Positions 10,322-64,000 of a stretch of 64,000 nucleotides of DNA are shown in pieces; positions within the stretch are counted from its first letter, which is position 1; every line of letters starts with the position of its first letter. The notes beneath the pieces are model-generated. The model saw only the letters and a list, made by a program, of their open reading frames with translations, was not told the origin of the DNA and ran no database searches. Made by a program: the position numbers and the translations under genes. The stretch lies in contig CANIQT010000013.1 in the NCBI GenBank assembly GCA_947469885.1, positions 13,604 to 77,603 of the forward strand, written 5' to 3'. Origin of the DNA: Bacteroidota bacterium. GTDB lineage: Bacteria; Bacteroidota; Bacteroidia; 2-12-FULL-35-15.

Positions 10322-10571
10322 AATTTGTTTTTAGGAGGCAAAGGTATTGTTAATTTACGTGGTATTGGGAGATATACTTGGCTTTAAAACTTGACAACAC
10401 TAATAAAAGAAAAAAATTCTTTTATGTTATAGAAAAAATTGACAAGCGAATAGTTGACAGAGAAAAGGTAATACTGATTTCCAAAAATTATTTCTTTTCC
10501 CCAATTTTTTCTCGTAAAAATTTTCATTCATTCAATATTATTATATTTGCACCTAAACCAATCGTTAGCAA

Positions 10572-11231: not shown

Positions 11232-11328
11232 GTTTAACTAATCTTAACACAATTTTAATCGATGTTGAGATTTTTGGTATCTTTGTTGCACTATTAACGA
11301 AAATATAAATCAACTAATAAAAAACAAA

Positions 11329-11619: not shown

Positions 11620-11645
11620 TTAATAAGTAGTTCTTAATTTAGAAT

Positions 11646-11680
11646 CCCTACTGTAGAAATATAGTAGGGGTTTTTTTTTG
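11646..11680 (+). terminator. rho-independent terminator
   Basis: ccctact-gtagaaata-tagtaggg followed by T9. Confidence 0.65.
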
Positions 11681-11685
11681 AAAAT

Positions 11686-12832: not shown

Positions 12833-12843
12833 TATTGTACGGA

Positions 12844-13491: not shown

Positions 13492-13496
13492 AACTT

Positions 13497-23942: not shown

Positions 23943-23960
23943 ATTCTAATAAATTTTTAA

Positions 23961-27026: not shown

Positions 27027-27068
27027 TTGACTTTTGTTTATCTGATAAATAAAATTTGTTTTTAATTG

Positions 27069-44515: not shown

Positions 44516-47500
44516 ATGAAAAAGAAAAATTTTAACGTAATCGTTTTGTCAATTTTCTTGGCATTTGCATTCGGTGCATTTGCAAAAGAAAACATTGGAG
44601 GTGGAAGTCATCCAACAAACCCTCCGGGTAACAATTCAGCCAAGTCGGTAAATGCTCAATGCGTAAATGCTACAGCACAAATAGATTTGGACATCAACAA
44701 TGTAAGAGCCAAAATTATGAATGGAGGCGACATGTGGTGGGATATTTTTGCTTCCACGAACGCTAGGTATCAGGTACCTAAACCTGCAAGTAGTTCTACC
44801 ATCGGACCAAGCTCACAGTTCGCAAGTTCTGTGTGGGTTGGAGGTTACGATGCTGGTGGTCAGCTAAAAGTAGCTGCTCAAACGTATCGCCAGAGCGGAA
44901 ACGACTATTGGCCCGGACCATTGAAAGATGATGCAACTACCGATGCAGGCAGATGTTTGCTTTGGGATAGATTCTACAAATTGAACCGTAAAGATGTTCA
45001 GGCTTATTACGAATGGGTAATGGGTGGTTCTATTGGAGTAAATCCTATCATTTCGGGAGCATCATTGCCTGATGCTTGGGCTACTATCACAGATTGGCCT
45101 GCTGTAAGTCCTGATAACCATCCTTTAGCTCCTTTTTATGATATTGATGCCAATAATGAATACGACCCAAGTGTGGGTGATGTTCCTGATTTTGATGTTA
45201 CTGGTACAAGAGGTTGCAATGCTCAGCTATATGGCGACCAGTGTATTTTTTGGGTGTTTAATGATAAAGGAAATATACACACCGAAACAGGAGGTGAAGC
45301 CATAGGATTGGAAGTACAGGCACAGGCATTTGCTTTTCAGACCAACGATGAAATTAACAATGCTACCTTTTACAAATATAAATTAATTAACAAAGGTTCG
45401 TTTGTATTAGATAGTACGTTCTTCGGATTGTGGGATGATGCCGATTTGGGAGATTATTCTGACGATTATGTAGGTTGTGATGTTGGTCTTGGGTTGGGTA
45501 TTCTTTATAATGGAGATGCGGTGGACGGTACCGGTGGTGCTACGCACTATGGAGCTAACCCTCCTGCAGTGGGTGTTGACTTTTTTGAAGGACCAAAGGC
45601 TGATACGAATGGTTTAGATGATCTTTCTAGTTCAAGACCGGCTTCATTCATTAATTATGGAAACACTGTGGTTGATGATGAGCGTTTAGGGATGTGTCGT
45701 TTCATGTATTTTAATAATGACTTTACTCCCGTTAACGGAAACCCGGAAGCAACAGATGATTATTACCAATACTTATCAGGAACATGGAAAAATGCAACTC
45801 CAATAACTTATGGTGGAGATGGTACAACAGGAAGTGTGCCATGTGCGTATATGTTCCCTGGAAGTTCGGATGCTCCTGCCTTTTTTGGAACAAATGGAGT
45901 AATTCAGCCAGCATGGAGCGAAACAGCAGTGCCTGCTGATAGACGTTTCCTTGAAAGTGCTGGTCCTTTTAAATTATATCCTGGTGCTGTCAACTACATT
46001 ACCGTTGGTGTTCCTTGGGCAAGAGCCACTCAAGGAGGTCCTTTGGCTTCTGTAGCACTTTTGAAAGGTGCTGACTCTAAAGTTCAGCAATTGTTCAACA
46101 ACTGTTTCTCTACGTTAAATGGTCCTGATGCTCCTAACTTAACGATTCAGGAATTGGATAAAGAATTAATATTAACCTGGTCCAATCCTTCTAATTCAAA
46201 CAACGCAAACGAAAGATATACTGAAGATTACGATAAATCCTCTGGGGCAGATTCGTTGTACCGCTTTCAAGGGTACATGGTGTATCAGTTAAAAGATGCT
46301 TCGGTGAGTGCCACCGATTTATACAATGTGGACAAGGCACGTTTAATTTTCCAGTGCGATAAAAAAGACAATGATAAACCAAATGGTGCAGCTCAGATAG
46401 TGAACTATACCAATGATATTACTATTTCAGCATTGGTTCCACAAGAAATGGTGAACGGTGTTGATAAGGGTATCATACATTCTTTGTCTGTAAAATCAGA
46501 TAAATTTGCAACTGGTAGCGATGTGTTGATTAATCACCACACCTATTATTTTGCAATTATTGCTTATGGTTACACACCAACTCAAGTGCCTACTAATCTT
46601 AACCAATTGCAAGACTACAAACCATTTATTGCAGGAAGAAGATTTATGGATGCTACTTTTTATCATACTGCTATTCCTCATATCCCTTCGCCAGAAGCAA
46701 ATGGAACACAGGCACAATCATCGTATGGTACAGGTCCAAAATTAACAAGAATAGAAGGACAGGGTAATGGTGCAATGGTGTTGGATTTAACTTCAGGTAC
46801 TGTGGACGAAATAATGAATTCAGGTTCTGGATGGCGCTCTATTCATCCTCAATATGAAAACTCTCACGGTCCAGTAAACATGAAAGTGATTGACCCATTG
46901 AATGTACCAGCCAACAGAAATTTCAGATTCATTATGAACGGAAGGGTTGTTACTAATTTATCTTCCATACCTACAACTGCTACATGGGATTTGATTGATA
47001 TGGATAATCACGATACTGTTCATTCCGAAACAAGTATTGCTTTGCCAAATGAGCAAATTATCAATGGGCAATCATCTGGTTCTGCTGCGGTTTCTATTCC
47101 TCGATGGGGGCTATCTGTTAATTCAGTTTATACGTATGATCCAGGATTAGCAGGTTGTGTTGATAATGGCTATTTGGAAGCTACAATGACTTTTGCTGAC
47201 CCTGTTAAAGCATGGTTGACGGGAGTGCCCGATGCGGAAGGATTGGATTATCATAACTGGATTCGTTCAGGAACTTTTACTTCTAAAAATCCGTTAGGAT
47301 TTGACGATTATGCAGGAAAAGACGATCAACAGTTTTACGAAAAAATGATTGGCGGCACATGGTCTCCTTATCGTATGGCTTCTATGGTGGTTCCAACCAC
47401 TGCAACAAACCCAGTAATTATGACGGGTAGTCCGGCATGGAACAGTTCTTCTGCCATGGGTCAGGATTTATTATCCAACCTTGCAAGTGTGGATGTAATT

Positions 47501-48592
47501 ATTACCAGCGACCGCTCTAAATGGACTAGATGTCCGGTTATTGAGTTGGAAGAAGCTACTAACTTGGCAATAGGCAATACTCCAAAAATGAAAATGCGTA
47601 GTTCTGCTTCAGTTGATAAAAATGGTACTGCCAACTTCCCTTCGACAGACAATAGCGATTACTCTACAGGTATGAGTTGGTTCCCTGGGTATGCAATTAA
47701 TCTTGAATCAGGAGAGCGTTTGAACATGGCTTTTGGAGAAGATTCTTGGTTGGTAGCTGACCATGGTGCAGATATGATGTGGAATCCAACTACAACGGAC
47801 CTTTCGGCAACAGACAATACTCCAGTTTTTGGAGGGAAACACTATATATATGTGTTCGGGCATAATGGTAACAAATTGTTCCCATCAAACGACCCGCATT
47901 TCCCAAATCAAATAAAAAACATGCCTCGTTACGATGGTGGTGCTTTCACTCATAATATGTTGTCGGTGGCTACCATGTCAGATGCATCTAACCTTTATGC
48001 ACGTGCGGTTTATGGCGATGCTATGTGGGTAAATATTCCTTTACTTGTACCTGGGCACAGTTTATTTGAAACTGATGTAAAAGTACGTTTGAGAGTTGCT
48101 AAATCGTACCAGTTTGGTTATGCAGGTTTAATTGCCCCTTTAACTGATACCTCGTTAACTGCTACCAATCACAATTTACCGATGTACGATTTTAATACAG
48201 CAGATATTGGAACCAAAACAAGTGATGCAGATGCTGCGGCTAATGCGCTTGACTTGATTAATGTAGTTCCAAATCCGTATTATGCGTACTCCGGATACGA
48301 ACTTTCGACAGCTGAAGTGAAAGTAAAAATAACCAATCTACCAGAAAAATGTACTGTAACTATTTATACTTTAAATGGCACATTGGTGAGAGCATTTAAA
48401 GTGGATCAGCCTGGTTATGCAAGAGACAAAATGGGGGTAGCGGTTACCTCTATTGACTGGGATTTGAAAAACCAAGTTAGAATTCCAATTTCGAGCGGAC
48501 TTTATATTATACATATAGATGTTCCTGATGTTGGAGAGAAAAACATTAAATGGTTTGGTGTGATGCGTCCGATAGATTTAGAAGCTTATTAA
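44516..48592 (+). CDS. large secreted protein (1358 aa) with T9SS type-A CTD; positional candidate for PorU-like T9SS sortase
   Basis: Signal peptide MKKKNFNVIVLSIFLAFAFGAFA. The C-terminal VVPNPYYAYSGYELSTAEVKVKITNLPEKCTVTIYTLNGTLVRAF...GLYIIHIDV is a CTD. It lies immediately upstream of a PorV-like gene, the porU-porV order. The C25 catalytic dyad is not verified. Confidence 0.5.
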   Translation: MKKKNFNVIVLSIFLAFAFGAFAKENIGGGSHPTNPPGNNSAKSVNAQCVNATAQIDLDINNVRAKIMNGGDMWWDIFASTNARYQVPKPASSSTIGPSSQFASSVWVGGYDAGGQLKVAAQTYRQSGNDYWPGPLKDDATTDAGRCLLWDRFYKLNRKDVQAYYEWVMGGSIGVNPIISGASLPDAWATITDWPAVSPDNHPLAPFYDIDANNEYDPSVGDVPDFDVTGTRGCNAQLYGDQCIFWVFNDKGNIHTETGGEAIGLEVQAQAFAFQTNDEINNATFYKYKLINKGSFVLDSTFFGLWDDADLGDYSDDYVGCDVGLGLGILYNGDAVDGTGGATHYGANPPAVGVDFFEGPKADTNGLDDLSSSRPASFINYGNTVVDDERLGMCRFMYFNNDFTPVNGNPEATDDYYQYLSGTWKNATPITYGGDGTTGSVPCAYMFPGSSDAPAFFGTNGVIQPAWSETAVPADRRFLESAGPFKLYPGAVNYITVGVPWARATQGGPLASVALLKGADSKVQQLFNNCFSTLNGPDAPNLTIQELDKELILTWSNPSNSNNANERYTEDYDKSSGADSLYRFQGYMVYQLKDASVSATDLYNVDKARLIFQCDKKDNDKPNGAAQIVNYTNDITISALVPQEMVNGVDKGIIHSLSVKSDKFATGSDVLINHHTYYFAIIAYGYTPTQVPTNLNQLQDYKPFIAGRRFMDATFYHTAIPHIPSPEANGTQAQSSYGTGPKLTRIEGQGNGAMVLDLTSGTVDEIMNSGSGWRSIHPQYENSHGPVNMKVIDPLNVPANRNFRFIMNGRVVTNLSSIPTTATWDLIDMDNHDTVHSETSIALPNEQIINGQSSGSAAVSIPRWGLSVNSVYTYDPGLAGCVDNGYLEATMTFADPVKAWLTGVPDAEGLDYHNWIRSGTFTSKNPLGFDDYAGKDDQQFYEKMIGGTWSPYRMASMVVPTTATNPVIMTGSPAWNSSSAMGQDLLSNLASVDVIITSDRSKWTRCPVIELEEATNLAIGNTPKMKMRSSASVDKNGTANFPSTDNSDYSTGMSWFPGYAINLESGERLNMAFGEDSWLVADHGADMMWNPTTTDLSATDNTPVFGGKHYIYVFGHNGNKLFPSNDPHFPNQIKNMPRYDGGAFTHNMLSVATMSDASNLYARAVYGDAMWVNIPLLVPGHSLFETDVKVRLRVAKSYQFGYAGLIAPLTDTSLTATNHNLPMYDFNTADIGTKTSDADAAANALDLINVVPNPYYAYSGYELSTAEVKVKITNLPEKCTVTIYTLNGTLVRAFKVDQPGYARDKMGVAVTSIDWDLKNQVRIPISSGLYIIHIDVPDVGEKNIKWFGVMRPIDLEAY

Positions 48593-48653: not shown

Positions 48654-49763
48654 ATGAAAAAACGTTATAAATTAGTAGCAACTTTGGTTATTGTTGTCGT
48701 GTCATCGGTTATTCCTGGCAATATGCTAAAGGCTGGAAATCCTGACCGTGTAGGACAAGCCGGAGCAACAGAATTGTTAATAAACCCATGGGCACGTAGC
48801 TCTGGGTGGGCAGGAAGTAATGTTGCCGGAGTTAGAGGATTGGAATCCATATTTTCGAATGTGGCAGGTACAGCATTCACCAAAAAAACAGAGTTGATTT
48901 TTGCACGTACTCAATGGCTAAAAGGAACTGATATTAATATTAATGGTTTTGGTTTAACCCAACATGTGGGCGAAACAGGAGCTATTGGATTGTCGGTGAT
49001 GTCGATGAGATTTGGTGATATTCCTATTACCACCACAGATGTGCCTGAAGGCGGATTGGGAACTTTCTCTCCTCAGTTTATGAACATTACTGTTTCATAT
49101 GCAAAAGGGTTTTCGGATAATATTTATGGAGGATTAGCCGTAAAAGTAATTACCGAAAAAATTGCTAACGTGGGTGCTAGAGGTGTAGCTTTGGATGCAG
49201 GTATTCAATATGTAACCGGAAAGCGCGAACAATTGAAGTTTGGAATTGCGCTTCAAAACTGGGGACCTAAAATGAAATACACTGGAGATGGTTTAGGTTT
49301 CAAAACTCAAGTTCCGGCTAGTACCACTACTGCTACCATGACAGTTGAACAACGCTCAGAGCAATTTGAATTACCTTCGTTATTAAGCATTGGTGCAGGG
49401 TATGACTTTTATGTAAAAAAAGACAGTGCTTCGATGAAAATGCATCGCATTACTGCAATGGGAACTTTTACTTCGTGCGCATTCGACAAAAACCAATATA
49501 AATTAGGTTTGGAATACGCTTGGAAAAGTATGCTTATGCTTCGTGTAGGTTATACTATCGAAAAAGGAATTACTAAGGATTTGGATTATTCTTCGGAATC
49601 TTCTAACACAAGTTTGACCACTGCATTAAAAGGACCAAGCGCAGGTTTTACTTTTGAGATTCCGTTTGGTAAAAATAAATCAACTTTTGGTATTGATTAT
49701 TCTTACAGAGCAACCAATACTTTTGGAGGCACCCATTCGATTGGTGCACGTGTGAATTTATAG
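48654..49763 (+). CDS. PorV/PorQ-family (FadL-like) outer-membrane protein, candidate T9SS shuttle PorV
   Basis: The 369-aa product has a signal peptide, then GQAGATELLINPWARSSGWAGSNVAGVRGLESIFSNVAG, which matches the PorV-type (E/F)LLIxPDARxxGMGxxGVA N-terminal pattern. It is barrel-like and ends IGARVNL. Confidence 0.45.
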   Translation: MKKRYKLVATLVIVVVSSVIPGNMLKAGNPDRVGQAGATELLINPWARSSGWAGSNVAGVRGLESIFSNVAGTAFTKKTELIFARTQWLKGTDININGFGLTQHVGETGAIGLSVMSMRFGDIPITTTDVPEGGLGTFSPQFMNITVSYAKGFSDNIYGGLAVKVITEKIANVGARGVALDAGIQYVTGKREQLKFGIALQNWGPKMKYTGDGLGFKTQVPASTTTATMTVEQRSEQFELPSLLSIGAGYDFYVKKDSASMKMHRITAMGTFTSCAFDKNQYKLGLEYAWKSMLMLRVGYTIEKGITKDLDYSSESSNTSLTTALKGPSAGFTFEIPFGKNKSTFGIDYSYRATNTFGGTHSIGARVNL

Positions 49764-51357: not shown

Positions 51358-54300
51358 ATGAATTTCAGATTACAAATTATAAACCCTAAAACAAAAAACG
51401 AAATGAAAAAACAATTACTTAAATTAGTGATGCTCGCCTGTATATTTATAGGAGTGGGAGCAAAAACGATGAATGCGCAAAGTGGTGATAGTTGCACCAC
51501 GGCAAAAGATTTTTTACCAGATACCAGTATGGTACCTCAGGTAGAAATAATGAGTAATGGAACAGTGTGGTACAAGTTTACTGCAATTGATTCTAATTTA
51601 ACAATAAAATTGGTTGAACTTTTTTCTTCTCCGGGTAACAAAGTGCTTAGTGTAAAAGTGAGGATAGCTAATTGCAGTAATCCAAGTATTATAGCCAGCG
51701 ATACCATTACTGATTTGTATGATTCAGCACTTGTAATTACAACCACATTGCTTGATTCGGGTAGTGTTTATTATTTGGAAATAACAAAAAACAACAGCAC
51801 TGAAGAAGTTAAAATGTTGATAGTGGTTGATAATAATCCGAAAATAAATTGGGGCTGCACAGTACCACCTCAATGTGAGTATGTTTTTAATGGAGATTTT
51901 GAAGATTATCTTTCAGTGCCAACCGGAGGGCCAAACCAATATAATCCCGGACAAATTTTCAGAACGTGTAATTGGTCAACTGCAAATATTGGAACCCCTG
52001 ATTATTTTATGACAATAGCTCCTGCAAATTCAAATTTTGGAGTACCAAATAACGTGGCAGGAGCTGGTGCTTTTTCAATTAATTCAGCAGGCACAACCCC
52101 AAGTGGGGGAGCGTATGGAGGAATAAATGCCTGGTGGGGAGGGCAGCCAGCAGGTTTGTCTGAATGTATTCAAGGAAATTTGGTGTGTCCACTCACAGCA
52201 GGAGTAAATTATATTGTTTCATTTTATGTACATCAGGCAAGTTTTTCTCATTTTACAGTCCCAATGCTGGGAGCCGCTATAACAAACGGCAGTATAGCTA
52301 CAGCAACTGTATTTGCCCCTGTTCCCCCAGCAGGCTCGGTAATAGCAGGAGGGTTGACAAGTACAAATAACTGGCAACTTATTACAGGAGTCTATTGTGC
52401 AACAGGAGGAGAAGACCATATTACTATTGGAGATTTTTGGCCCCTGCAACCACCAATTCCAAACGGCTTTGGGCAGGCACAGGCAGCTTATTATTACATA
52501 GATGGTATTTCTGTTTCGCCCATGCCATTAGCTGTTACAACTTCAACTATTTGTTCGGGCGAAACACCCGTACTGAACAATAACTATTGCGGTGCCCAAA
52601 TGGACTGGACTTCAACCTACCCATGGTCGTGTGCAGCTTGTATAGACCCTAATCCAAGTTTACCTTTTCTATCGAGTAGCGAATCGTTTACGGCTACTCT
52701 TACATTGTGCGATGGATGTGTTCAAACTTCAACAGCTGTGGTAACTGTTGCTCAGCCTCCTGTTATTATAATTACAGGAAGTATAACATCGTGTACCGGT
52801 GCGGGTACGGTTTATACTGCACTTCAATTAGGAGTTACCCAATCGCCAGTGACTTATAGCTGGACAGCAAGTAACGGAGCATCTCAATCGGGCACAAGCA
52901 ATACTTTTACTCCAGGGTTTTCATCAGCGGGAGGTACTATCTATTGTACCATTACAAACGCTGCTACAGGCTGTAAAGGCACTGCTTCGTTATATGTTGG
53001 CAGCTGCTGCGAGCCACCTACCCCCAACATTAATTTTACCAATACAGCTGTAAATGTGTTGCCGGGTAGCCTGGCAGCAAACAGTATGGGAACCTGGAAT
53101 AGTTCCACCTATGAGGTGAAAGGCAAAACATTTTCGATTAACGGAACATTTACCGTTAATATGGATTTGACCTTGATGGGATGTACCGTATTGATGGGTT
53201 ATGGTACAACCATTAATATCAGTCCGGGAAAAAAATTAATTATTACCGATTTGGTGGACCCAACTTTACCTTGGCTTATATCTCATTTGTATGCCTGTAA
53301 AGAAATGTGGAGTGGTATCAATGTTATCTACTCTAACAGTTCATTACTCATAGACCATGGAACCACTATTGAAGATGCTGAAACAGCTGTATTTGCAACC
53401 AATGGAGGGGATGTAACTATTGGAGGCTACTATAATCAAACAGGGCAATTAAAAGTAATTTTTAATAAAAACCTAAAAAATGTAGTTATAAATAATTCCG
53501 GCACACATGTATATACTACCAATACCATTACGGCAACCGATTTTGAATGTATTGTAGGGCAAATACCACAAGGCGGAAGTAATGTGAATGGAGGTAATTT
53601 TTTAATGTTTCCTCATGCTAACATACGTCCTGATGTAGGGGTGGATTTGAATATGGTAAATAATATAACCATTGGAAGTGCTGCCAGTGCCAATTTATTA
53701 AACAAATTTGAAAACATGGATTACGGCATACGGTCGGATAAAAGTAACCTGATTGTTTACAACAACTTGTTTCAGGACATTACCATGCCTCAGAATATAT
53801 TTATTGGTAGTTGTTTGCCGGGTACTGCTATATGTGCCAAAGGAAACATTTCCAGCAATTATCCTCCTTATATGATTGTGGGCAGTTCATCTGCCGGAAA
53901 TTACATCAACACGTTTAACAATTGCGGAGTGGGCATAGATGCAGGAAAAACAATGAACCAAACCATTTGGGAAAACCATTTTAATAATATTAAAAAATGG
54001 GCAATACGTGAAAATACCAACCTGACGTGCAGTATTGTTATTGCACAAAATCATATTGTTAATGCACAGATTGGTATTGACTGTTTCAACAGCTTGTTTT
54101 CGTATGTAGATATTTACAATAATGATATTACAAACAGTGGGGGTTTGGCAAATGTAATTGGCATAAATGTGAACGAGCCCACACCTTCTCCGACTGGATA
54201 TTACAGAATACATTACAACAACATTAACTATGTTCGCTCTGGAATATTGGCTAACGGACTAACAGGCTCCAACATTGATAGGAACAATATTCGAATTACT

Positions 54301-55635
54301 CCTACTACTATTAATAATCCTCTGCCTTGCTATGGTGTGAAGGTGGACAACAGCCGTAAGTGCAATGTGGTGGCAAACTGGGTGCTGGGCACCACCATCG
54401 ACCGTTGGGTGTATGGTATTGACCTGAATTCAGTATGCAGTAGTAATCAAGTAACCTGCAACGAAAGCCATACCGTGGGGCGTGGGTTGTTTTTTGGAGG
54501 AAACCAACTGCCCGGTACGTTAATAGCAAAAAACATGATGGATAATAACCTGGAAGGGTTTGTGATAAATGGAAATAATGGTCAAGTTGGTCCTCAGAGC
54601 AGTTTTTTCGGTGTTTCGTGCGATAATACTTGGTCGCCTAATATGACCTTTAACACAGCAAATTACGGTAACGCTCCAGGGAATCTCTCTATCTTATATG
54701 TTAGAACTCCATGCGGTACTCCTTACTGCCCTAGTCCTTGGAATATGTATCCAGGTTCTTTACTTTATAATATACCTCAATTTGTTGCTGCAAGCAATTT
54801 AAGTTACACCTGTCCTGTGGTATTGCATCCCTTTGCAAATGCAGCAACTCATGCCATGTTATTAAAAATAGCAGGTGATTCAATTCCTGTTGAAGAATAC
54901 GATTCTGCAACCATATTTATGATGCACCAAAACCTGTATAGATACTTAGCCTCCGATTCTACTTTTTTAACCAACGACAGTTTATTACAATCGTTTGTTC
55001 AGGAAATGAATGAAGGTAATCTTGGAAAGTTAGATTCTATAGAGCGTATGTTTGCTAAACCAGCCACAATGGATACCACCCAATTGCTTAGTTTGCTGGC
55101 ACTGGTCAATTCTATTACTGCCAGCAGCAGTGTGGAAGCAAACAGTGCATGGCTATACAAACAAATGCTAACCAATTTGCTTCAACGCAAAGAATGGGAC
55201 AGCACTCAAATATACAGCTTGAGAGACTTGGCATGGAAATGTGCTCATACCGATGGGGCAGCAGTGCTACAGGCAAGAGCCATATTGTCTCAGTTAGACA
55301 CTGTTGAATATTATAATATTTGCGAACTTGGAGATGAGTTGACTCCAAAAATCCATTGGACAGTTAATCAACCTACCAAAAGGAATTCATTCAAATTGTT
55401 TCCAAATCCAAACAATGGACAAATGAATTTGATTTATTCATTAAGTAAATCAGATAAGGGTGAATTAAATTTATATGATTTAAGAGGGTTACTAATTAGA
55501 AAATACTCATTGCAATCTGGCGAAAATAATCAATTGTTCATTAATGAATCAGAATTAGGTAACGGAGTATATTTTTATAAAGTGATGGTGAATGATGAAT
55601 TAAAATCAAGTGACAAGATTGTAATTATTAAATAA
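51358..55635 (+). CDS. very large secreted protein: CBM4_9-like N-terminal jelly-roll domain, parallel beta-helix repeats, T9SS type-A CTD
   Basis: The real start is probably 51403 (MKKQLLKLVMLACIFIGVGA signal). PbH1-like repeats include NNITIGSAASANLL..., NHIVNAQIGIDCFNS... and NNIRITPTTINN.... The C-terminal KLFPNPNNGQMNLIYSLSK...NGVYFYKVMVNDELKSSDKIVIIK is a CTD. Confidence 0.65.
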   Translation: MNFRLQIINPKTKNEMKKQLLKLVMLACIFIGVGAKTMNAQSGDSCTTAKDFLPDTSMVPQVEIMSNGTVWYKFTAIDSNLTIKLVELFSSPGNKVLSVKVRIANCSNPSIIASDTITDLYDSALVITTTLLDSGSVYYLEITKNNSTEEVKMLIVVDNNPKINWGCTVPPQCEYVFNGDFEDYLSVPTGGPNQYNPGQIFRTCNWSTANIGTPDYFMTIAPANSNFGVPNNVAGAGAFSINSAGTTPSGGAYGGINAWWGGQPAGLSECIQGNLVCPLTAGVNYIVSFYVHQASFSHFTVPMLGAAITNGSIATATVFAPVPPAGSVIAGGLTSTNNWQLITGVYCATGGEDHITIGDFWPLQPPIPNGFGQAQAAYYYIDGISVSPMPLAVTTSTICSGETPVLNNNYCGAQMDWTSTYPWSCAACIDPNPSLPFLSSSESFTATLTLCDGCVQTSTAVVTVAQPPVIIITGSITSCTGAGTVYTALQLGVTQSPVTYSWTASNGASQSGTSNTFTPGFSSAGGTIYCTITNAATGCKGTASLYVGSCCEPPTPNINFTNTAVNVLPGSLAANSMGTWNSSTYEVKGKTFSINGTFTVNMDLTLMGCTVLMGYGTTINISPGKKLIITDLVDPTLPWLISHLYACKEMWSGINVIYSNSSLLIDHGTTIEDAETAVFATNGGDVTIGGYYNQTGQLKVIFNKNLKNVVINNSGTHVYTTNTITATDFECIVGQIPQGGSNVNGGNFLMFPHANIRPDVGVDLNMVNNITIGSAASANLLNKFENMDYGIRSDKSNLIVYNNLFQDITMPQNIFIGSCLPGTAICAKGNISSNYPPYMIVGSSSAGNYINTFNNCGVGIDAGKTMNQTIWENHFNNIKKWAIRENTNLTCSIVIAQNHIVNAQIGIDCFNSLFSYVDIYNNDITNSGGLANVIGINVNEPTPSPTGYYRIHYNNINYVRSGILANGLTGSNIDRNNIRITPTTINNPLPCYGVKVDNSRKCNVVANWVLGTTIDRWVYGIDLNSVCSSNQVTCNESHTVGRGLFFGGNQLPGTLIAKNMMDNNLEGFVINGNNGQVGPQSSFFGVSCDNTWSPNMTFNTANYGNAPGNLSILYVRTPCGTPYCPSPWNMYPGSLLYNIPQFVAASNLSYTCPVVLHPFANAATHAMLLKIAGDSIPVEEYDSATIFMMHQNLYRYLASDSTFLTNDSLLQSFVQEMNEGNLGKLDSIERMFAKPATMDTTQLLSLLALVNSITASSSVEANSAWLYKQMLTNLLQRKEWDSTQIYSLRDLAWKCAHTDGAAVLQARAILSQLDTVEYYNICELGDELTPKIHWTVNQPTKRNSFKLFPNPNNGQMNLIYSLSKSDKGELNLYDLRGLLIRKYSLQSGENNQLFINESELGNGVYFYKVMVNDELKSSDKIVIIK

Positions 55636-55644
55636 ATAACTTTA

Positions 55645-55680
55645 AACAATAACTTCTATCAAATGATAGAAGTTATTGTT
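55645..55680 (+). terminator. perfect 16-bp-stem hairpin (aacaataacttctatc / gatagaagttattgtt), terminator/attenuator 12 nt before the next ATG
   Basis: The inverted repeat is read directly and is followed by tatcttt. Confidence 0.5.
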
Positions 55681-55692
55681 TATCTTTGAAAG

Positions 55693-56673
55693 ATGAAAAA
55701 AATATTAAATCTTATATTTTGTGTTTTGTGTTTCGTGAATAATCTCAAGTCGCAAAATCTTGTACCTAACGAATCATTTGAAGTTTTGGACAGTTGCCCA
55801 AACAATCAGGGAAGAATATATCTTGCTCTGCCGTGGTTTCAACCTTGCATATATTCAGGTAATACCCATAACTCTTCAAGCTCCGATATTTACAATCCAT
55901 GTGCTTTATGGGCTCCAGCTGGAGTTCCGGTCAATATGGTTGGTTCCCAATTTGCCAGAATTGGTGTTGGATATGCAGGTATTCACCCAGATGTTGACAC
56001 TTTTAATTACCGCGAATACATTGAAGTCCCATTATTATCGCCATTAATTGCCAATAAACTGTATTGTGTAAAGTTTTATGTTTCCTTGGCTGAAACGTCA
56101 CATCATGCCATAAGTAATATGGGGGCATATTTTTCAAATGATAGCTTATTGGATACTTCGTATTATCATGCCATAGATTATGTTTTTCCGCAAATAGAAA
56201 ATCCTGGAAATGTTTTTTTAAATGATACTGCAAATTGGGTGTTGGTTTGGGGTAATTTTATTGCTACTGGTGGAGAGCGGTTTATGACAATAGGAAATTT
56301 TCATAATCATGCAAATACAAATGTTCAAAATTTGAACGGAGGTTCTCTAGGCAACTGGTCGTATTATTACATAGATGATGTAAGTGTTATAGATTGCGAT
56401 AGTATAAGTGGGGTAAAAGAAATGAATGATGAAATGGAAGTGAGCATTGCGCCCAACCCGGCAAAGGATGAATTACGAATTAAGAATTATGAATTAGGAA
56501 TTAAAACAATAAAAATATATAACCTGCTAAGTGAATGTGTCTATAACACAACAATAAAACAATTAAACACTATAACCATTGATGTTGCCTATTTACCCAA
56601 AGGCATCTATTTTATTGAACTGCAAAGTGAGAAAGGAACTGCGAGAAAGAAGTTTATAAAGGACGGCAAATAG
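55693..56673 (+). CDS. secreted CBM4_9-like domain protein with T9SS type-A CTD (paralog A)
   Basis: Signal peptide MKKILNLIFCVLCFVNNLKSQ, an NLVPNESFE jelly-roll start, and the C-terminal SIAPNPAKDELRIKN...KGIYFIELQ CTD. Confidence 0.65.
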   Translation: MKKILNLIFCVLCFVNNLKSQNLVPNESFEVLDSCPNNQGRIYLALPWFQPCIYSGNTHNSSSSDIYNPCALWAPAGVPVNMVGSQFARIGVGYAGIHPDVDTFNYREYIEVPLLSPLIANKLYCVKFYVSLAETSHHAISNMGAYFSNDSLLDTSYYHAIDYVFPQIENPGNVFLNDTANWVLVWGNFIATGGERFMTIGNFHNHANTNVQNLNGGSLGNWSYYYIDDVSVIDCDSISGVKEMNDEMEVSIAPNPAKDELRIKNYELGIKTIKIYNLLSECVYNTTIKQLNTITIDVAYLPKGIYFIELQSEKGTARKKFIKDGK

Positions 56674-56698
56674 CCAGTGGTTATTTGAGCGAGTATGT

Positions 56699-57388
56699 GT
56701 GAATGCAGATTCCACTTTTTTAACCAACGACAGTTTATTACAATCGTTTGTTCAGGAAATGAATGAAGGTAATTTAGGAAAATTAGATTCCATTGAGCGG
56801 ATGTTTGCAAAACCAGCTACAATGGATACCACCCAATTACTTAGCTTACTGGCATTGGTCAATTCCATTACTGCAAGCAGCGCGGTGGAGGCAAATAGTG
56901 CCTGGCTGTACAAACAAATGCTTGGAAATTTATTAGCTGGAAAAGATTGGGACAGTACTCAAATATCCAGTTTGAAAGATTTGGCTTGGAAATGCGCCCA
57001 CACCGATGGGGCGGCAGTGCTGCAAGCAAGAGCTATTTTATCGCAATTAGATACTGTTGAATATTATAATATTTGCGAACTTGGAGATGAGTTGACTCCA
57101 AAAAGCCATTGGACAGTTAATCAACCTATGAAAGGGAATTCCTTCAAATTATTTCCTAATCCCAATAATGGTAGTATGAATTTGATATATACTTTGAATA
57201 AAAATGAGAAAGGGGAATTATATCTTTATGATTTGGCGGGAATACTGATTAAAAAATATACTTTACAAGTAGGTGAAAACAATCAACTTTTCATCAATGA
57301 GTCAGCATTGAGTAATGGTGTGTATTTTTATAAAGTAATGATAAACGATGAATTAAAAACAAGTGCAAAAATTGTAATTATTAAATAA
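56699..57388 (+). pseudogene. truncated duplicate of the C-terminal 229 aa (linker + CTD) of the 1425-aa protein; no signal peptide
   Basis: 56706-57388 aligns with 54958-55635 at roughly 85-90 percent identity, with long perfectly identical patches. The ATG at 56699 is created at the duplication junction. Confidence 0.55.
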
Positions 57389-57397
57389 ATAACTTTA

Positions 57398-57434
57398 AAC
57401 ATAAACTTCTATCAAACTGATAGAAGTTTATGTT
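57398..57434 (+). terminator. second copy of the 16-bp-stem hairpin, with two compensatory base-pair swaps
   Basis: aacataaacttctatc / gatagaagtttatgtt. Stem positions 5 and 6 changed in both arms so that pairing is preserved. Confidence 0.5.
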
Positions 57435-57446
57435 TATCTTTGGAAG

Positions 57447-58415
57447 ATGAATAAAGCATTCTTTCTTTTCGTAATATTGAACTTGACTCAGAATCTTTCA
57501 ATGAATGGACAAAACCTTGTACCTAATTCCTCTTTTGAAGTAATTGATTCTTGCCCTACTATAGATGGAAAGCTATATTTTGCGCAACCATGGTTTCAGC
57601 CCTGCATTTATTATGGGAACACGAAAAACTCTTCTAGTTCCGACATCTTCAGTTATTGTGCGTCATACATGGGTGTTCCTACTAATGGAGAAGGTTCTCA
57701 ATTTGCAAGGACAGGTAACGGATATGCAGGTTTTAGTCCTTACGCTGGTATTAATAATGGTCGCGAATATAACGAAGTTCAACTATTATCACCGTTAATA
57801 GCCAATAAACTCTATTGTGTAAAATTTTATGTTTCATTAGCTGAAACCTCACGATACGCAATTAGCAAATTAGGTGTGTATTTTTCCGTAGATAGTTTAT
57901 TAGATACTTCCTATTATCATGCAATAGATTATGTTTTTCCGCAAGTAGAAAACCCTAGTAATATTTTTTTAAATGATACATCTAATTGGATGTTGGTATG
58001 GGGAAATTTTGTTGCAACTGGTGGAGAGCGGTTTATGACAATTGGTAATTTTCATAATCCCGCAAATACAAATGTTCAAAACGTAAACGGAGGTTCTTTT
58101 TATTGGACATATTATTATATAGATGATGTAAGTGTAGTAGATTGTGATAGTATAAGTGGGGTAGGGGAAATTAATGGAGAGGTGGATGTGAGCATTGCGC
58201 CTAATCCTGCAACGGATGAATTACGAATTAAGAATTATGAATTAGGAATTAAAACAATAAAAATATATAACCTGCTAAGTGAATGTGTCTATAACACAAC
58301 AATAAAACAATTAAACACTATAACCATTGATATTGCCTATTTACCCAAAGGCATCTATTTTATTGAAGTACAAAGTGAGAAAGGAATAAAGAGGAGAAAG
58401 TTTGTGAAAGAATAA
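57447..58415 (+). CDS. secreted CBM4_9-like domain protein with T9SS type-A CTD (paralog B)
   Basis: The 322-aa product is collinear with paralog A at about 75 percent aa identity. Its CTD coding part is nearly nucleotide-identical to that of paralog A. Confidence 0.65.
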   Translation: MNKAFFLFVILNLTQNLSMNGQNLVPNSSFEVIDSCPTIDGKLYFAQPWFQPCIYYGNTKNSSSSDIFSYCASYMGVPTNGEGSQFARTGNGYAGFSPYAGINNGREYNEVQLLSPLIANKLYCVKFYVSLAETSRYAISKLGVYFSVDSLLDTSYYHAIDYVFPQVENPSNIFLNDTSNWMLVWGNFVATGGERFMTIGNFHNPANTNVQNVNGGSFYWTYYYIDDVSVVDCDSISGVGEINGEVDVSIAPNPATDELRIKNYELGIKTIKIYNLLSECVYNTTIKQLNTITIDIAYLPKGIYFIEVQSEKGIKRRKFVKE

Positions 58416-58596: not shown

Positions 58597-58908
58597 ATGA
58601 AAAAAATAATTTTAGCATGTGTTGTATCTGTTTTTTTTGTGGGTGTTTCTATAAGTCAAACCACTGCTGAACCTGCAAAACTAACCGCTGCAAGCATAGA
58701 AGGAACTTACCAAATTCAGGTGGTTAATTCGAGAAATCAACCTTACATACCTGCTAACCTTAACCAGTTAGTGTTAGACAACAGAGATGCCACTGAGGTA
58801 AAATATGTGACTTTAGGAACAGAAGTACGTTTGAAAGTACTTCCACTTTCCGAAATAAATAAGCCTGATTTTAAACCTTTACAAAAGATTGCGCATGTTC
58901 GTAATTAA
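58597..58908 (+). CDS. small secreted hypothetical protein
   Basis: Signal peptide MKKIILACVVSVFFVGVSISQ, a 103-aa product. Confidence 0.45.
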   Translation: MKKIILACVVSVFFVGVSISQTTAEPAKLTAASIEGTYQIQVVNSRNQPYIPANLNQLVLDNRDATEVKYVTLGTEVRLKVLPLSEINKPDFKPLQKIAHVRN

Positions 58909-58918: not shown

Positions 58919-61900
58919 ATGAAAAGAGTACTTTTCCTTGTTTCCTTATTTGTTTTCAATTTTGCATTTGGTCAGGCTCCGCCAAATGATAACTGTATAA
59001 CCCCACAGGTTATTGTTATTCCTGCATCTGGTACAATTTGTGTTAACTCAACCAACATAAACGCCACAAGCGATGGGTTTCTGAACACTTGCGATGTAGG
59101 TGTTCCGGGCAATGAAGTATGGTTTGCATTTGTTGCAACCGGAACTTCCAACACTGTTACAATCACACCAAATGGCGGGACTCCTGCACAGTTTGCGGTG
59201 GTTTCGATGCAAAATACCAATTGCGCTTCGGGCTCTTATAACATTTGTAATGCCAGTGCAACAGCAGGTGGTGCGGCATCGGTTACTTATTCTTACACTC
59301 CGGGTTCCCAAATATTATTTTCGGTAGAAACAGAAGGGGCAGACGGAACCTTTCAGGTGTGTGTAACCTCCACTACTCCACCTCCCGGACCAGGTAGTTC
59401 GTGTGCTACCGCAACATCTATTTGTACAATGGCTCCGTTTACTCAAAATCCAATGCCGTCCAATGTGACTGCATTGTTACCATCTTGTTTTTTTGTTAAT
59501 CTTCAACAACCGGTGTTTTATCAGTTTACAGCTGGTACCACCGGAACTTGTGCTTGGTCTGCTACTCCGCTTGGAGCGGTTGAATACGATTGGGCAATGT
59601 ACAATATTACAGCTGGTTGCCCAGGAGTGGAAGTTGCTTGCAATTATGATTATAATTTCAGCGCAGGTTCACCTGTAGGAATGGCTATAGGTTCGCCATC
59701 CCTCTGCCCAACTAGTTCAGTGGCGGTGAGTGCATCTGATGAAATGTGCCCTCCCATTGTTGTCACAGCCGGGCAAACCTATTTGATTGTGATAGATAAT
59801 TTCGACTTTAATGGTATCGGATTTGATTTTGCTTGGGGCAATGGAACTTTTCAGATGCCAAGTTCTTCGTTTACTGTAAATCCAACAAATGCCTGCAATT
59901 CGGCACTTGCTACATTTGTAAATAATAGTGTGCCTGTTGCTGCTGCTTCTCATTGGGATTTTGGTGATGGAACTACTTCTAACCTTCACAGTCCGCCACC
60001 ACACAATTATCCTACACCCGGAACTTATTTGATTTCGTTAACCACTACTACCGCTAACGGTTGTCAATATATCAGTTCGAACAGTGTTACGGTAAATACG
60101 ACACCAACCATGACCACACCACCCAACATTTCGGTGTGTGCAGGTACAGCCATTGCAGCAAGTAATTTTGTGAGTAACCCTACGGGAGCCACCTTCGCAT
60201 GGACCAACTCAAATAACGCCATCGGATTGGCTGCTAATGGAACAGGAAACACCCCTGCTTTCACTTCCACTAATGGTACAGGTTCAAATATTGTTTCTAC
60301 CATCACTGTTACTCCTACTCGAAATGGATGTGCGGGAACACCAGTAAATTATACTATTACTGTTACACCTGGTCCAACCATTGCTAATGCAGGTCCCGCA
60401 CAAAGTGTTTGCGGTACAACAGCCACACTTGCCGGAAACACAGCAACTACAGGGGTAGGAACATGGACACTCGTTAGCGGTGCAGGAACAATTACAAATC
60501 CGAATTCACCAACATCTGGTGTAACAGGGCTTGGAGTAGGTGCCAATGTTTTTCAATGGACAATTATTAGTGCACCTTGCCCAAATTCTACTAGCCAAGT
60601 AACTATCACCTCTGGAAACGCCACCAGTGCCTCGGTTGCAGGTCCTAATCAAACCGTTTGTGGCACCACAGCAACACTAGCAGGAAATGCTCCTGCGGTT
60701 GGTGTGGGTACTTGGACATTAGTAAGCGGAGCAGGAACTATCACTACTCCCGGTTCTCCAACATCAGGGTTAACCGCCCTTGGAGTAGGTGCCAATGTTT
60801 TTCAATGGACAATAACCAACGCAGGATGCCCTTCTACTTCTAGTCAAGTAACTATTACTGCAGGTGCTATACCAACTGTGGCAGTTGCAGGAGGTAATCA
60901 AATTGTATGTGGAACAACTGCTACATTGGGTGGTAACACCGCAACTGTTGGTGTTGGCACATGGACACTGGTTTCGGGAGCAGGAACCATTACCAGTCCT
61001 AATTCACCATCATCAGGTGTAACAGCACTTGGACCCGGTGCCAATGTATTTCAATGGACGATTGCACTTTTACCCTGTCCTGCTACGTCAAGTCAAGTAA
61101 CCATCACTTCGGTGCAAGTACCCACTGTAGCTGCTGCAGGACCTAATCAAACCGTTTGCGGAACGAATGCAACATTAGCAGGAAATGTTGCAGCCATCGG
61201 AACCGGGCTTTGGACTGTCGTTAGCGGTTCGGGAACAATTGCCAACACTGGATTAAACAACTCTGCTATAACAGCACTTGGTGCAGGAGCCAATGTGTTT
61301 CAATGGACTATATCGAATGCACCATGCGCTTCCACATCAGGTCAGGTAACCATAACAGGAGTTACACCACCAACGGTGGCAGCTGCAGGACCTAATCAAA
61401 CTGTTTGTGGAACTACCGCTACATTAGCTGGAAACCTTGCTGCATCAGGCACAGGGCTATGGACATTGATAAGCGGTACAGGAACAATTACTACCCCGTC
61501 TTCTGAAACATCAGGATTAACAGCACTTGGAGTAGGAGCCAATGTATTTCAATGGACCATATCCAATGCGCCTTGCCCTACATCCACTAGTCAGGTAACC
61601 ATTACAGGAGTTGCGGTGCCTACTGTAGCTGTTACGGGACCTAACCAAACAGTTTGTGCCACTACCACCAACTTAGCCGGAAACATTGCAGCTGCTGGTT
61701 CAGGGCTTTGGACATTAGTAAGCGGAGCAGGAACAATAACAACACCAGCATCCGAATCAACTGGAATAACAGCACTTGGCATAGGAGCCAATGTGTTTCA
61801 ATGGACCATCTCAAATGCACCTTGCCCTTCCACTTCGAGCCAGGTAACCATTACCGCAGGCACACCTTCTACAGTTGCAGCTGCCGGACCCAATCAAACC

Positions 61901-64000
61901 GTTTGTGGAACGTCAGCAACACTTGCAGGAAACGCTGCTGTGGTTGGAGTTGGAGTGTGGACACTGGTTTCAGGAAGCGGAACCATTACCAATCCTACGT
62001 TACCTAATTCGGGAGTTACGGGTTTAGGATTTGGAGCCAATGTGTTTCAATGGGAAATTGATAATCTTCCTTGTCCTCCATCCACTAGTCAGGTAACTAT
62101 TACAGCTGTTGATGTTCCTACTGTTTCGGTGGCAGGTCCTAATCAAAATATTTGCGGAACTACCGCCACATTAGCCGGAAATGCTGCAACAACAGGCACG
62201 GGACTATGGACATTGGTTAGTGGAAGCGGAACTATTTCAACACCTTCGCTCGCAACATCAGGTATTACAGGGTTGACAGTGGGTAACAATGTTTTCGACT
62301 GGACCATTTCCAATGCACCTTGTCCTGCTTCTTCTACACAAGTAACTATTGCTGTTAGTTCCATACCAACGGTTGCCAATGCAGGACCTAATCAAACTGT
62401 ATGCGGAACAACAGCTACATTAGCAGGAAATACTGCTACAACAGGTGTTGGAACCTGGACATTAATTTCAGGTGCCGGAACAATTACTAATCCTGCATTG
62501 GAAAATTCAGGTGTTACAGGTCTTGGACCGGGAGCAAATGTGTTTCAATGGCAGATAGATTTATTGCCTTGCCCGCAAACAACCAGTCAGGTAACTATTA
62601 CATCCGTTGCTACTCCAACTGTGGCAGCAGCTGGACCTAACCAAACAGTTTGCGGAACAACTGCAACATTAGCAGGAAACCTTGCTGCCGTGGGTACAGG
62701 AGTATGGACATTAGTTTCAGGAACTGGAACAATTACCAATACAGGATTAAATAATTCAGGTATTACAGCACTTGGAGCAGGAGCTAATGTATTTCAATGG
62801 ACTATTTCGAATGCGCCTTGTCCTGCTTCTACTAGTCAGGTAACCATTACAGGCGTTTCTATACCAACTGTTGCCAATGCAGGAGCTAATCAAACAGTTT
62901 GCGGAACCAATGCTACATTAGCCGGAAATGCTGCTGCTGTTGGTACAGGAGCATGGACAGTCGTTAGCGGAAGCGGTACATTTACAAATTCTACCTCTGA
63001 AACATCAGGTATTACTGCACTTGGAGTAGGTGCCAATGTTTTTGAATGGACGATATCAAATGGTATTTGTCCTCCAACATCAAGTCAGGTAACCATTACA
63101 GGAGTAGCTACTCCAACCGTTGCTGCTGCAGGACCTAACCAAACCATTTGTGCTACTACAGCTACATTAGCCGGAAATATTGCCACCACAGGCACAGGAG
63201 TGTGGACAGTAGTAAGTGGTGCAGGAACTATCACTAATCCTGCTTCTCCAACTTCAGGAGTTACTGGCTTAACTGTTGGTACAGATGTGTTTCAATGGAC
63301 GATTACTAATGCACCTTGTCCTGCAAGTTCAAGTCAAGTTACAATCACAGTAGGTGCCCCAACCACTATTGCTAACGCTGGTGTAAATCAAAACGTTTGC
63401 GGAACAACAGCTACTTTAGCAGGTAATGTGCCTGTTACCGGAACAGGTGCATGGACAGTAGTTAGCGGAGGAGCAACTGTTACAAGTCCATTAGCTTTCA
63501 ATTCAGGTGTTACCAATCTTGCACCTGGGGCTAATGTTTTTGAATGGACTATCTCTAGTGCTAACTGTCCTCCAACTACCAGTCAGGTAACTATTACAGC
63601 TACTCCAATACCTCCTGCACCGGTTGTTGTATCGCCTCTCAACTATTGTCAGTTTGATGTGGCAGGTGTTCTTTCAGCTACAGGAACCAATTTATTATGG
63701 TACACCAATTCCACTGGTGGTGTTGGAAGCCCTATAGCACCAACTCCTTCTACTACTTTATCTGGTACCACTAATTATTATGTTTCGCAAACAATAAACG
63801 GATGCGAAGGTCCGAGAACTTTTATTGCGGTGATTGTGGCTACCTTTCCTGTTGCAAGTTTTTATGCTCCGTTAACAAGCAGTATCGAAAATCCGGTTAT
63901 TCATTTTACAGACGAATCAGTGGGTGCTACTTCATGGTCGTGGAATTTTGGTGATTTTTCATCAGGAGCAAATAACACGAGTACTTCTCAAAACCCAACC
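58919..64000 (+). CDS. giant cell-surface adhesin-like protein, 5' 1694 codons (continues beyond window): N-terminal domain, PKD domain, then 13 tandem ~80-aa Ig/PKD-like repeats
   Basis: Signal peptide MKRVLFLVSLFVFNFAFGQ and a PKD-like HWDFGDGTTSNLHSPPPHNY. Repeats of the form PTVAAAGPNQTVCGTTATLAGN...GTWTLVSGAGTITNP...GANVFQWTISNAPCP.STSQVTIT run from about 60350 to 63600 with a 240-bp period. Antisense track ORFs within are artefacts. Confidence 0.75.
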   Translation, partial: MKRVLFLVSLFVFNFAFGQAPPNDNCITPQVIVIPASGTICVNSTNINATSDGFLNTCDVGVPGNEVWFAFVATGTSNTVTITPNGGTPAQFAVVSMQNTNCASGSYNICNASATAGGAASVTYSYTPGSQILFSVETEGADGTFQVCVTSTTPPPGPGSSCATATSICTMAPFTQNPMPSNVTALLPSCFFVNLQQPVFYQFTAGTTGTCAWSATPLGAVEYDWAMYNITAGCPGVEVACNYDYNFSAGSPVGMAIGSPSLCPTSSVAVSASDEMCPPIVVTAGQTYLIVIDNFDFNGIGFDFAWGNGTFQMPSSSFTVNPTNACNSALATFVNNSVPVAAASHWDFGDGTTSNLHSPPPHNYPTPGTYLISLTTTTANGCQYISSNSVTVNTTPTMTTPPNISVCAGTAIAASNFVSNPTGATFAWTNSNNAIGLAANGTGNTPAFTSTNGTGSNIVSTITVTPTRNGCAGTPVNYTITVTPGPTIANAGPAQSVCGTTATLAGNTATTGVGTWTLVSGAGTITNPNSPTSGVTGLGVGANVFQWTIISAPCPNSTSQVTITSGNATSASVAGPNQTVCGTTATLAGNAPAVGVGTWTLVSGAGTITTPGSPTSGLTALGVGANVFQWTITNAGCPSTSSQVTITAGAIPTVAVAGGNQIVCGTTATLGGNTATVGVGTWTLVSGAGTITSPNSPSSGVTALGPGANVFQWTIALLPCPATSSQVTITSVQVPTVAAAGPNQTVCGTNATLAGNVAAIGTGLWTVVSGSGTIANTGLNNSAITALGAGANVFQWTISNAPCASTSGQVTITGVTPPTVAAAGPNQTVCGTTATLAGNLAASGTGLWTLISGTGTITTPSSETSGLTALGVGANVFQWTISNAPCPTSTSQVTITGVAVPTVAVTGPNQTVCATTTNLAGNIAAAGSGLWTLVSGAGTITTPASESTGITALGIGANVFQWTISNAPCPSTSSQVTITAGTPSTVAAAGPNQTVCGTSATLAGNAAVVGVGVWTLVSGSGTITNPTLPNSGVTGLGFGANVFQWEIDNLPCPPSTSQVTITAVDVPTVSVAGPNQNICGTTATLAGNAATTGTGLWTLVSGSGTISTPSLATSGITGLTVGNNVFDWTISNAPCPASSTQVTIAVSSIPTVANAGPNQTVCGTTATLAGNTATTGVGTWTLISGAGTITNPALENSGVTGLGPGANVFQWQIDLLPCPQTTSQVTITSVATPTVAAAGPNQTVCGTTATLAGNLAAVGTGVWTLVSGTGTITNTGLNNSGITALGAGANVFQWTISNAPCPASTSQVTITGVSIPTVANAGANQTVCGTNATLAGNAAAVGTGAWTVVSGSGTFTNSTSETSGITALGVGANVFEWTISNGICPPTSSQVTITGVATPTVAAAGPNQTICATTATLAGNIATTGTGVWTVVSGAGTITNPASPTSGVTGLTVGTDVFQWTITNAPCPASSSQVTITVGAPTTIANAGVNQNVCGTTATLAGNVPVTGTGAWTVVSGGATVTSPLAFNSGVTNLAPGANVFEWTISSANCPPTTSQVTITATPIPPAPVVVSPLNYCQFDVAGVLSATGTNLLWYTNSTGGVGSPIAPTPSTTLSGTTNYYVSQTINGCEGPRTFIAVIVATFPVASFYAPLTSSIENPVIHFTDESVGATSWSWNFGDFSSGANNTSTSQNPT

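Follow-up and report, generated by a model that had tools for sequence, protein, structure and literature searches.

The window analysed here, a 64,000-nucleotide stretch of a Bacteroidota genome assembly (GenBank GCA_947469885.1, contig CANIQT010000013.1, positions 13,604 to 77,603 of the forward strand), carries at its end a gene for a large surface protein with a tandem array of 83-amino-acid units in its middle. On the plus strand, the frame contains no stop codon from position 58859 through the window end. Translation probably starts at the ATG at 58919, continued by MKRVLFLVSLFVFNFAFGQ, and the partial coding sequence (58919..64000) holds 1,694 of the gene's 1,819 codons. When 5.8 billion proteins were searched, one of 1,819 amino acids (P0001) proved 100% identical over the full query, in agreement with the original prediction, made from the letters of the window, that the gene is still open at the window end and that its product exceeds 1,694 amino acids. 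By extrapolation, the stop codon falls at window coordinate 64378, about 378 nucleotides past the window end, and the full gene measures 5,460 nucleotides. The window's copy of it has 100% DNA identity to those on three further metagenome contigs (L081, L082, and L083), of which one is a scaffold of 186.7 kb, one a k141 contig assembled from short reads, and one a scaffold belonging to a second BioSample; the identical contigs stem from at least two BioSamples, the source samples being SAMN08331097 and SAMN08331103, and all the data are metagenome assemblies. In the cluster formed at ≥90% identity, which is a small sample, length varied only through a different choice of start codon and through one fragmentary entry. 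The sources usually name members of the family [quoted passage not shown] or "PKD domain-containing protein," and the gene product is probably an ordinary large cell-surface protein of a freshwater Bacteroidota bacterium with a 13-unit stalk in its middle.

From the N to the C terminus, the protein consists of a putative signal peptide, a Cys-rich module, a PKD domain, a segment matching no family, the 13 repeat units, an Ig_7 domain, a second PKD domain, and a type-B type IX secretion system (T9SS) sorting domain, all encoded on the plus strand. The putative Sec-type signal peptide (MKRVLFLVSLFVFNFAFGQ; 58919..58975), read by eye, is conserved in orthologues. The Cys-rich module that follows (58976..59923, amino acids 20 to 335), the presumed distal tip, has a weak galactose-binding-like match at its start, where the model GBD_T9SS_assoc (PF23759) aligned in five of five orthologues with a best E value of 1.6e-4, under the curated cutoff. 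A sequence search of the PDB found no relative of this module of about 316 amino acids, the identity of which is 80 to 82% among the three closest species and 71% to protein P0005. The first classical PKD domain (59942..60082, amino acids 342 to 388) matched PF18911 (PKD_4) with an E value of 4.2e-9 when the whole protein was used and with 42.3 bits when a fragment was used, as well as the ColH PKD domain in the PDB. It was the sole Pfam match in the fragment spanning 59924-60361, and the domain-sized segment behind it (60119..60361, amino acids 401 to 481), itself devoid of a family match, shows a two-Cys pattern like that of the repeat units. Beyond the array (60362..63598) lie the Ig_7 domain, "Ig-like domain CHU_C associated" (63611..63838, amino acids 1565 to 1640; PF19081, 34.8 bits versus a cutoff of 27.3), and the second classical PKD domain (amino acids 1662 to 1713; PF18911 and PF00801 on the C-terminal fragment), of which only the start (63902..64000) is in the window and which runs past its end. 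The original prediction had proposed looking beyond the window for a C-terminal sorting domain, and one of type B was found there, at amino acids 1732 to 1817 of P0001 (TIGR04131, 43.5 bits versus a cutoff of 35; CHU_C/PF13585, 60.5 bits versus a cutoff of 27). NCBIfam contained no model for either the repeat unit or the N-terminal module and gave spurious subthreshold matches only.

We then determined the structure of the array at the DNA level. When the unit boundaries were set by two invariant motifs, QVTI and NVFxW, it resolved into exactly 13 head-to-tail units (60362-63598), each of 83 amino acids, with zero indels between units, and Tandem Repeats Finder reported a period of 249 nucleotides (score, 1248; 68% matches). 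The number of units, their location, and the recurrent motif given in the original prediction, which the unit consensus matches, are thereby borne out, while the period of 240 bp given there needs to be corrected to 249 bp. Over the 78 pairs, the nucleotide identity of the units ranged between 60 and 77% (mean, 67%) and their amino acid identity between 55 and 82% (mean, 68%). In-frame 249-mers from the nonrepeat part of the gene were only 29% identical (maximum, 39%), so the repetition is far beyond chance. The identity at the first, second, and third codon positions was 75%, 81%, and 47%, respectively, with a chance value of 32% expected at the third position from the composition, and where two units had the same amino acid, the codon was identical in only 50% of cases. 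The longest exact stretch common to two units was 35 nucleotides (units 1 and 2), the median was 14 nucleotides, and an exact 25-mer was shared by just 2 of the 78 pairs. Paralogous units had a median rate of synonymous substitution (dS) of 1.26 and a ratio of nonsynonymous to synonymous rates (dN/dS) of 0.19. The units are old duplicates whose similarity at the protein level has been kept by selection. The description of them as near-identical, with high nucleotide identity, was based on the motif in the protein and is not upheld by the DNA.

Within the 83-column unit, 26 columns are invariant, including two cysteines per unit, Cys17 and Cys73. The array as a whole is rich in Thr, Gly, and Ala and has 12 acidic and 0 basic residues among its 1,079 amino acids. 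From 60001 to 64000, the G+C content rose to 0.44 to 0.48 over the array, compared with about 0.32 to 0.40 elsewhere. A foreign origin of the array was considered on account of this raised G+C content and rejected, the Thr/Gly/Ala/Pro-rich composition of the units being sufficient to explain it. The Bacteroidota O-glycosylation motif D-(S/T)-(A/I/L/V/M/T) had zero sites in the units and one in the whole protein; glycosylation like that of GhpA, a stalk protein discussed below, is therefore not claimed.

An array of this kind could be a locus prone to recombination and replication slippage, that is, a contingency or size-variable adhesin locus, or else a collapsed or chimeric product of assembly, and the original prediction had drawn attention to both hazards. 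Relatives do differ in copy number (11, 13, or 15 units), units 1 and 2 do share the 35-nucleotide exact stretch, and all the sequences come from metagenome assemblies without long reads. Against this stand the identity of only 60 to 77% between units, with almost no long exact shared stretches, the intact reading frame with its exact 83-amino-acid register, and the identity of the gene in four contigs, the k141 short-read contig among them, from at least two BioSamples.

All 1,819 codons of the gene aligned with those of the orthologue in the L002 species without a single gap, and the orthologue retains the 13 units in unchanged order. Corresponding units were 76.6% identical (the diagonal of the comparison) and noncorresponding ones 66.4%, none of 100,000 permutations reached the diagonal value, and the optimal one-to-one assignment of units was the identity permutation, with the exception of one swap. 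The two genes are deeply diverged (dS of about 1.4 to 2.5), so that their synonymous sites are saturated, and dN/dS was 0.06 to 0.12 across the N-terminal, repeat, and C-terminal parts (0.12 for the repeats), indicating purifying selection throughout. The five orthologues carry 13, 13, 15, 11, and 11 units, and 62 of these 63 units are exactly 83 amino acids long. Units 6 to 13 have clear one-to-one orthologues in all the species, and the differences in count lie in the N-terminal half of the array. In none of the five proteins did a pair of units surpass 83% identity at the amino acid level, so that none of them shows a recent duplication.

An internal control was provided by a 42-bp high-identity intergenic repeat located outside the window, about 3.2 kb past the stop codon of the gene (near 18560-18800 in L081, with its counterpart in L082). 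It differed by exactly one copy between two assemblies in which the coding array was identical; a variation in the copy number of the coding array would therefore have been visible. This repeat lies between a type-A cargo gene and rpsN, and two further species have arrays with a 42-nucleotide period in equivalent positions (L002, 13977-14217; L001, 12087-12223).

Since the units have diverged, the assemblies are identical, the orthologue aligns without a gap, and the 42-bp control does vary, the claims of slippage, recombination, and misassembly are unsupported. Instability or artefact as an account of the array is largely refuted, and we regard it as extremely improbable. The array is old and stably inherited, and its copy number shifts only over long evolutionary distances; the comparison of copy number proposed in the original prediction thus did reveal differences, between species, and at the same time constancy among the available assemblies. 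The array seems alarming by eye because of its 13-fold protein motif, and yet its DNA is old and diverged, so that it neither endangers assembly nor makes the locus hypervariable. Similar arrays should be judged on nucleotide identity and not on protein identity.

We next assigned the unit to a fold and a family. The original prediction had suggested a search for PKD-like domains, and this was positive: the K319L-like PKD model (PF22352) matched the whole protein with 106.7 bits (cutoff, 27; E value of 6e-31) and a fragment of two units with 37.7 bits. Single units scored under the cutoff (22.9 bits for unit 1), and 10 of the 13 reached an E value of <0.01. An AlphaFold2 model of a single unit, computed from a 150-row alignment of diverse units, was all beta-strand, with a predicted local distance difference test score (pLDDT) of 96.7. 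A two-unit model computed from a 12-row alignment of the window's own units had a pLDDT of 36 and yielded no usable interdomain geometry. When the single-unit model was compared with the PDB by Foldseek, the best match was 9fly_A (template modeling [TM] score, 0.83; root mean square deviation, 1.9 Å over 83 residues; 35% identity), which is the cryo-electron microscopy structure of the base of the Aureispira protein GhpA (residues 4151 to 5009). The next matches were the PKD domains of human KIAA1837, KIAA0319, and AAVR (including 2yrl and 2e7m), with TM scores of 0.65 to 0.74. A search of the PDB by sequence with a single unit of the window found nothing besides GhpA. The unit profile matched GhpA with an E value of 7e-135, through 11 consecutive units at residues 4755 to 5716, adjoining its C-terminal sorting domain; individually these scored 48 to 69 bits (E values of 1e-12 to 1e-18). 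The topology of the unit and the disulfides of the GhpA stem suggest that the invariant cysteines may pair between neighbouring domains. The 83-amino-acid unit, common in Bacteroidota, now has a solved relative in the GhpA stem that can be used as a template.

The unit is abundant: among 1.84 billion proteins, its profile found 20,827 representative proteins at an E value of ≤1e-3 and 4,016 at ≤1e-30, with up to 74 matched stretches per protein and lengths up to about 7,000 amino acids. The 13-unit, 1,819-amino-acid protein is a modest member of a known and very large family. Of the name "giant adhesin," the second word is supported, since the protein has the build of an adhesin (large, rich in repeats, and by prediction secreted to the surface), and the first overstates its size.

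As regards the role of the array, the most informative relative was found in L086 (outside the window), where a homologue of 1,640 amino acids (9376-14298) lies between the same 103-amino-acid gene and the same transketolase-like gene that flank the surface-protein gene. Its N-terminal 511 amino acids and its C-terminal 182 amino acids are each 59% identical to P0001, and in the array's place it has a stalk of 11 copies of an unrelated 74-amino-acid two-Cys repeat, which the hidden Markov model of the unit did not detect at all. A whole stalk module has been swapped between the two, under the same tip and anchor, which shows stalks of this kind to be interchangeable modules. The variable number of units (11, 13, or 15), the near-uncharged, Thr/Gly/Ala-rich makeup, and above all this swap argue for a role of the array as a spacer.

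The same observations bear on the idea that the repeats themselves form a multivalent surface for binding a polymer or particles, as do PKD domains in chitinases, collagenases, and AAVR. The 26 invariant columns of 83, the dN/dS of 0.12, and the constancy of unit length in all but one of the 63 units from five species are in favor of it, as is the fact that the nearest eukaryotic relatives, the PKD domains of KIAA0319L/AAVR, bind ligands. Against it, the syntenic homologue retains the tip and the C terminus and has another repeat in place of the whole array, and the unit number varies; the array's near absence of charge and its richness in Thr, Gly, and Ala are typical of a stalk, and the homologous units of GhpA form a structural stem. 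We therefore consider binding by the repeats unlikely.

The reading that we consider likely is that the array forms a stable stalk, serving as a spacer, in a T9SS surface protein of an ordinary kind; the repeats are real, and their instability is unsupported. The protein would be exported by Sec through its N-terminal signal peptide and would cross the outer membrane by the T9SS via its type-B C-terminal domain, as published work on type-B cargo and GhpA suggests. PorP-like proteins serve as anchors of type-B cargo (PMC9143113), and an outer-membrane protein of the PorP/SprF family, with its gene at another place in the genome, would retain the surface protein on the cell, the latter having its C terminus at the membrane and its N-terminal module distal. 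A chain of some 17 Ig-like domains, including the 13 units of 83 amino acids, would hold the Cys-rich module tens of nanometres off the cell, and this module would do the binding. If an Ig-like domain spans about 4 nm, the chain would reach roughly 50 to 70 nm. The analysis showed the domain architecture, the fold and family of the unit, the sorting domain, the divergence and conservation of the array, and its replaceability, and from these and published work we infer the anchoring by a PorP/SprF protein, the spacer role, and the binding by the tip. The protein is a plausible surface adhesin with a putative binding tip.

The T9SS-rich context speaks for this reading: just upstream are a gene of the PorV/PorQ family and four genes for type-A cargo, and the window also has a PorP/SprF gene paired with one for type-B cargo. 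Several points weigh against it. No PorP/SprF or PorE gene lies beside the surface-protein gene, in contrast to sprB-sprF and ghpA-ghpBC, and none was found within 10 kb downstream; for type-B cargo, such a neighbour is frequent though not the rule in every case. The sorting domain is encoded 100 to 380 nucleotides past the window and was seen solely on the contigs identical to it. The family match of the N-terminal module is below threshold, which leaves the binding tip presumptive, and the 26 invariant columns of the unit would also fit direct binding by the repeats.

The gene closest to the surface-protein gene is a conserved one, on the plus strand, encoding 103 amino acids with a signal peptide (58597..58908), which ends 10 nucleotides before the ATG of the surface-protein gene and is probably cotranscribed with it. 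It has counterparts in L002 (4974-5285), L001 (5488-5799), L084 (5264-5578), L086 (9001-9357), and L085 (9001-9324), and in every relative examined it precedes, by 10 to 31 nucleotides, a gene for type-B cargo that shares the N-terminal module; in L085, the cargo-sized gene that follows is cut short and unannotated. The 103-amino-acid protein had no Pfam or NCBIfam match, and its family comprised just 19 clusters in the search of 5.8 billion proteins. The gene tracks the tip and anchor of the cargo and not the type of repeat. This narrow family travelling with a cargo gene is the one loose end with some novelty.

Directly upstream of it, on the plus strand, are four consecutive type-A T9SS cargo genes (51358-58415) encoding 1,425, 326, 229, and 322 amino acids. 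The 326- and 322-amino-acid genes appear to be paralogues; both products have a Por_Secre_tail domain and a weak match to DUF3244, and both genes contain a 14-nucleotide repeat in 2.4 copies (GAATTACGAATTAA; 56470-56503 and 58218-58251). In the 15-unit relative, L084, no genes were called for the three small type-A cargo proteins. Farther upstream on the same strand are genes for a TonB-dependent-receptor-like protein of 1,247 amino acids (40700-44443), a protein of 1,358 amino acids with a faint PorZ-like C terminus (44516-48592), and an outer-membrane protein of the PorV/PorQ family (48654-49763; 147 bits, below the equivalog cutoffs of PorV, PorQ, and PorV2). A likely counterpart of the last is a 369-amino-acid open reading frame of the same length upstream of the L002 orthologue (508-1617). 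Downstream of the surface-protein gene come the transketolase-like gene, which runs in the opposite direction, a gene for type-A cargo, and the ribosomal-protein operon.

At a distance of 32 kb from the surface-protein gene, a canonical pair of a type-B cargo gene and a PorP/SprF gene (25554-29123) is encoded on the minus strand. The cargo protein (27069-29123, 684 amino acids) has a SprB repeat, a PKD domain, and a CHU_C domain (95.5 bits). Its partner (25554-27026, 490 amino acids, 240 bits) is about 195 amino acids longer than the PorP/SprF family model, the extra part being C-terminal and without an assignment, and may serve to anchor the repeat protein as well. Also encoded in the window, on the plus strand, are a 513-amino-acid protein without a family match followed by a FadL/PorV-like outer-membrane protein of 489 amino acids (22401-25430 together) and a 347-amino-acid protein made up almost entirely of WG-containing beta repeats (32024-33067; PF14903, seven stretches).

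Among known systems, the one with the closest stalk is GhpA of Aureispira sp. CCB-QB1 (9fly and related entries), shown by experiment to be a T9SS-secreted surface stalk (bioRxiv 10.1101/2024.01.29.577165). It has 5,898 amino acids, 52 Ig-like repeats, an N-terminal hook, and a rigid heptameric stem of 240 nm with interdomain disulfides, and its gene is followed by ghpB (PorP-like) and ghpC (PorE-like) (bioRxiv 10.1101/2024.01.29.577165). The window protein, predicted to be T9SS cargo like GhpA and likewise from Bacteroidota, has in common with it a long series of Ig-like domains, a sorting domain at the C terminus, homologous stem units, and, by its appearance, an N-terminal signal peptide, whereas it has 1,819 amino acids, 13 units, an unrelated N-terminal module, and no adjacent PorP or PorE gene. 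Orthology with GhpA was rejected, as the N-terminal 462 amino acids, the N-terminal profile, and the C-terminal 257 amino acids all lacked a GhpA match in sequence searches of the PDB.

The likeness invites the question of whether the window protein could be a miniature GhpA-like appendage, in which protomers lie side by side in a rigid hollow fibre and the N-terminal modules do the capturing. GhpA is heptameric, and the homology of the units to 11 consecutive ones in it, part of which fall within the solved base of the stem, is in line with such an arrangement, as are the two invariant cysteines per unit, in view of the disulfide-stapled GhpA stem, and the status of GhpA and, by prediction, of the window protein as T9SS cargo, with a type-B sorting domain in the window protein. 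Nothing, on the other hand, matched the hook, the neck, or the C-terminal parts of GhpA, the length is about one-third that of GhpA, no ghpB- or ghpC-like genes adjoin, and a unit present in more than 20,000 proteins says little about the oligomeric state. Such a fibre is in our view very unlikely. We give hardly more than a speculative place to a variant in which the surface protein and the secreted 103-amino-acid protein would together make a small GhpA-like appendage, a Cys-stapled bundle of protomers with lectin-like tips, the 103-amino-acid protein acting as an accessory factor (a chaperone, a cap, or an anchor adaptor) in place of an adjacent PorP or PorE.

The eukaryotic members of PF22352 (KIAA0319L/AAVR and KIAA1837) resemble the units of the window protein in the whole-protein score above the cutoff and in the PKD-type beta-sandwich fold. 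They differ from them in that the units form a bacterial subfamily with two invariant cysteines, 11 to 24% identical to the human domains.

The repeat adhesins of Gram-positive bacteria (alpha C/Rib, SasG, and Bap type) have arrays that are about 90 to 100% identical at the DNA level and shift in copy number between strains. A central tandem array of Ig-like domains and a copy number that differs among relatives are common to them and to the window protein, the array of which is, in contrast, 67% identical and constant across the available assemblies. The features of a size-variable adhesin were not found in it: there were no repeats of >90% DNA identity and, in the small sample of four contigs, no difference in copy number.

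With SprB, the gliding adhesin of Flavobacterium johnsoniae, the window protein has in common its nature as a large repetitive surface protein and its type-B (CHU_C/TIGR04131) sorting domain, and for such type-B cargo, anchoring by a PorP/SprF-family protein is to be expected (PMC9143113). SprB is, however, much longer (6,497 versus 1,819 amino acids), and the window gene has no adjacent sprF-like gene. The SprB repeat (PF13573) had no match in the surface protein at an E value of ≤1, and with neither SprB repeats nor an adjoining sprF-like gene, orthology with SprB was rejected. The window protein thus shares its stalk unit with GhpA and its sorting signal with both GhpA and SprB.

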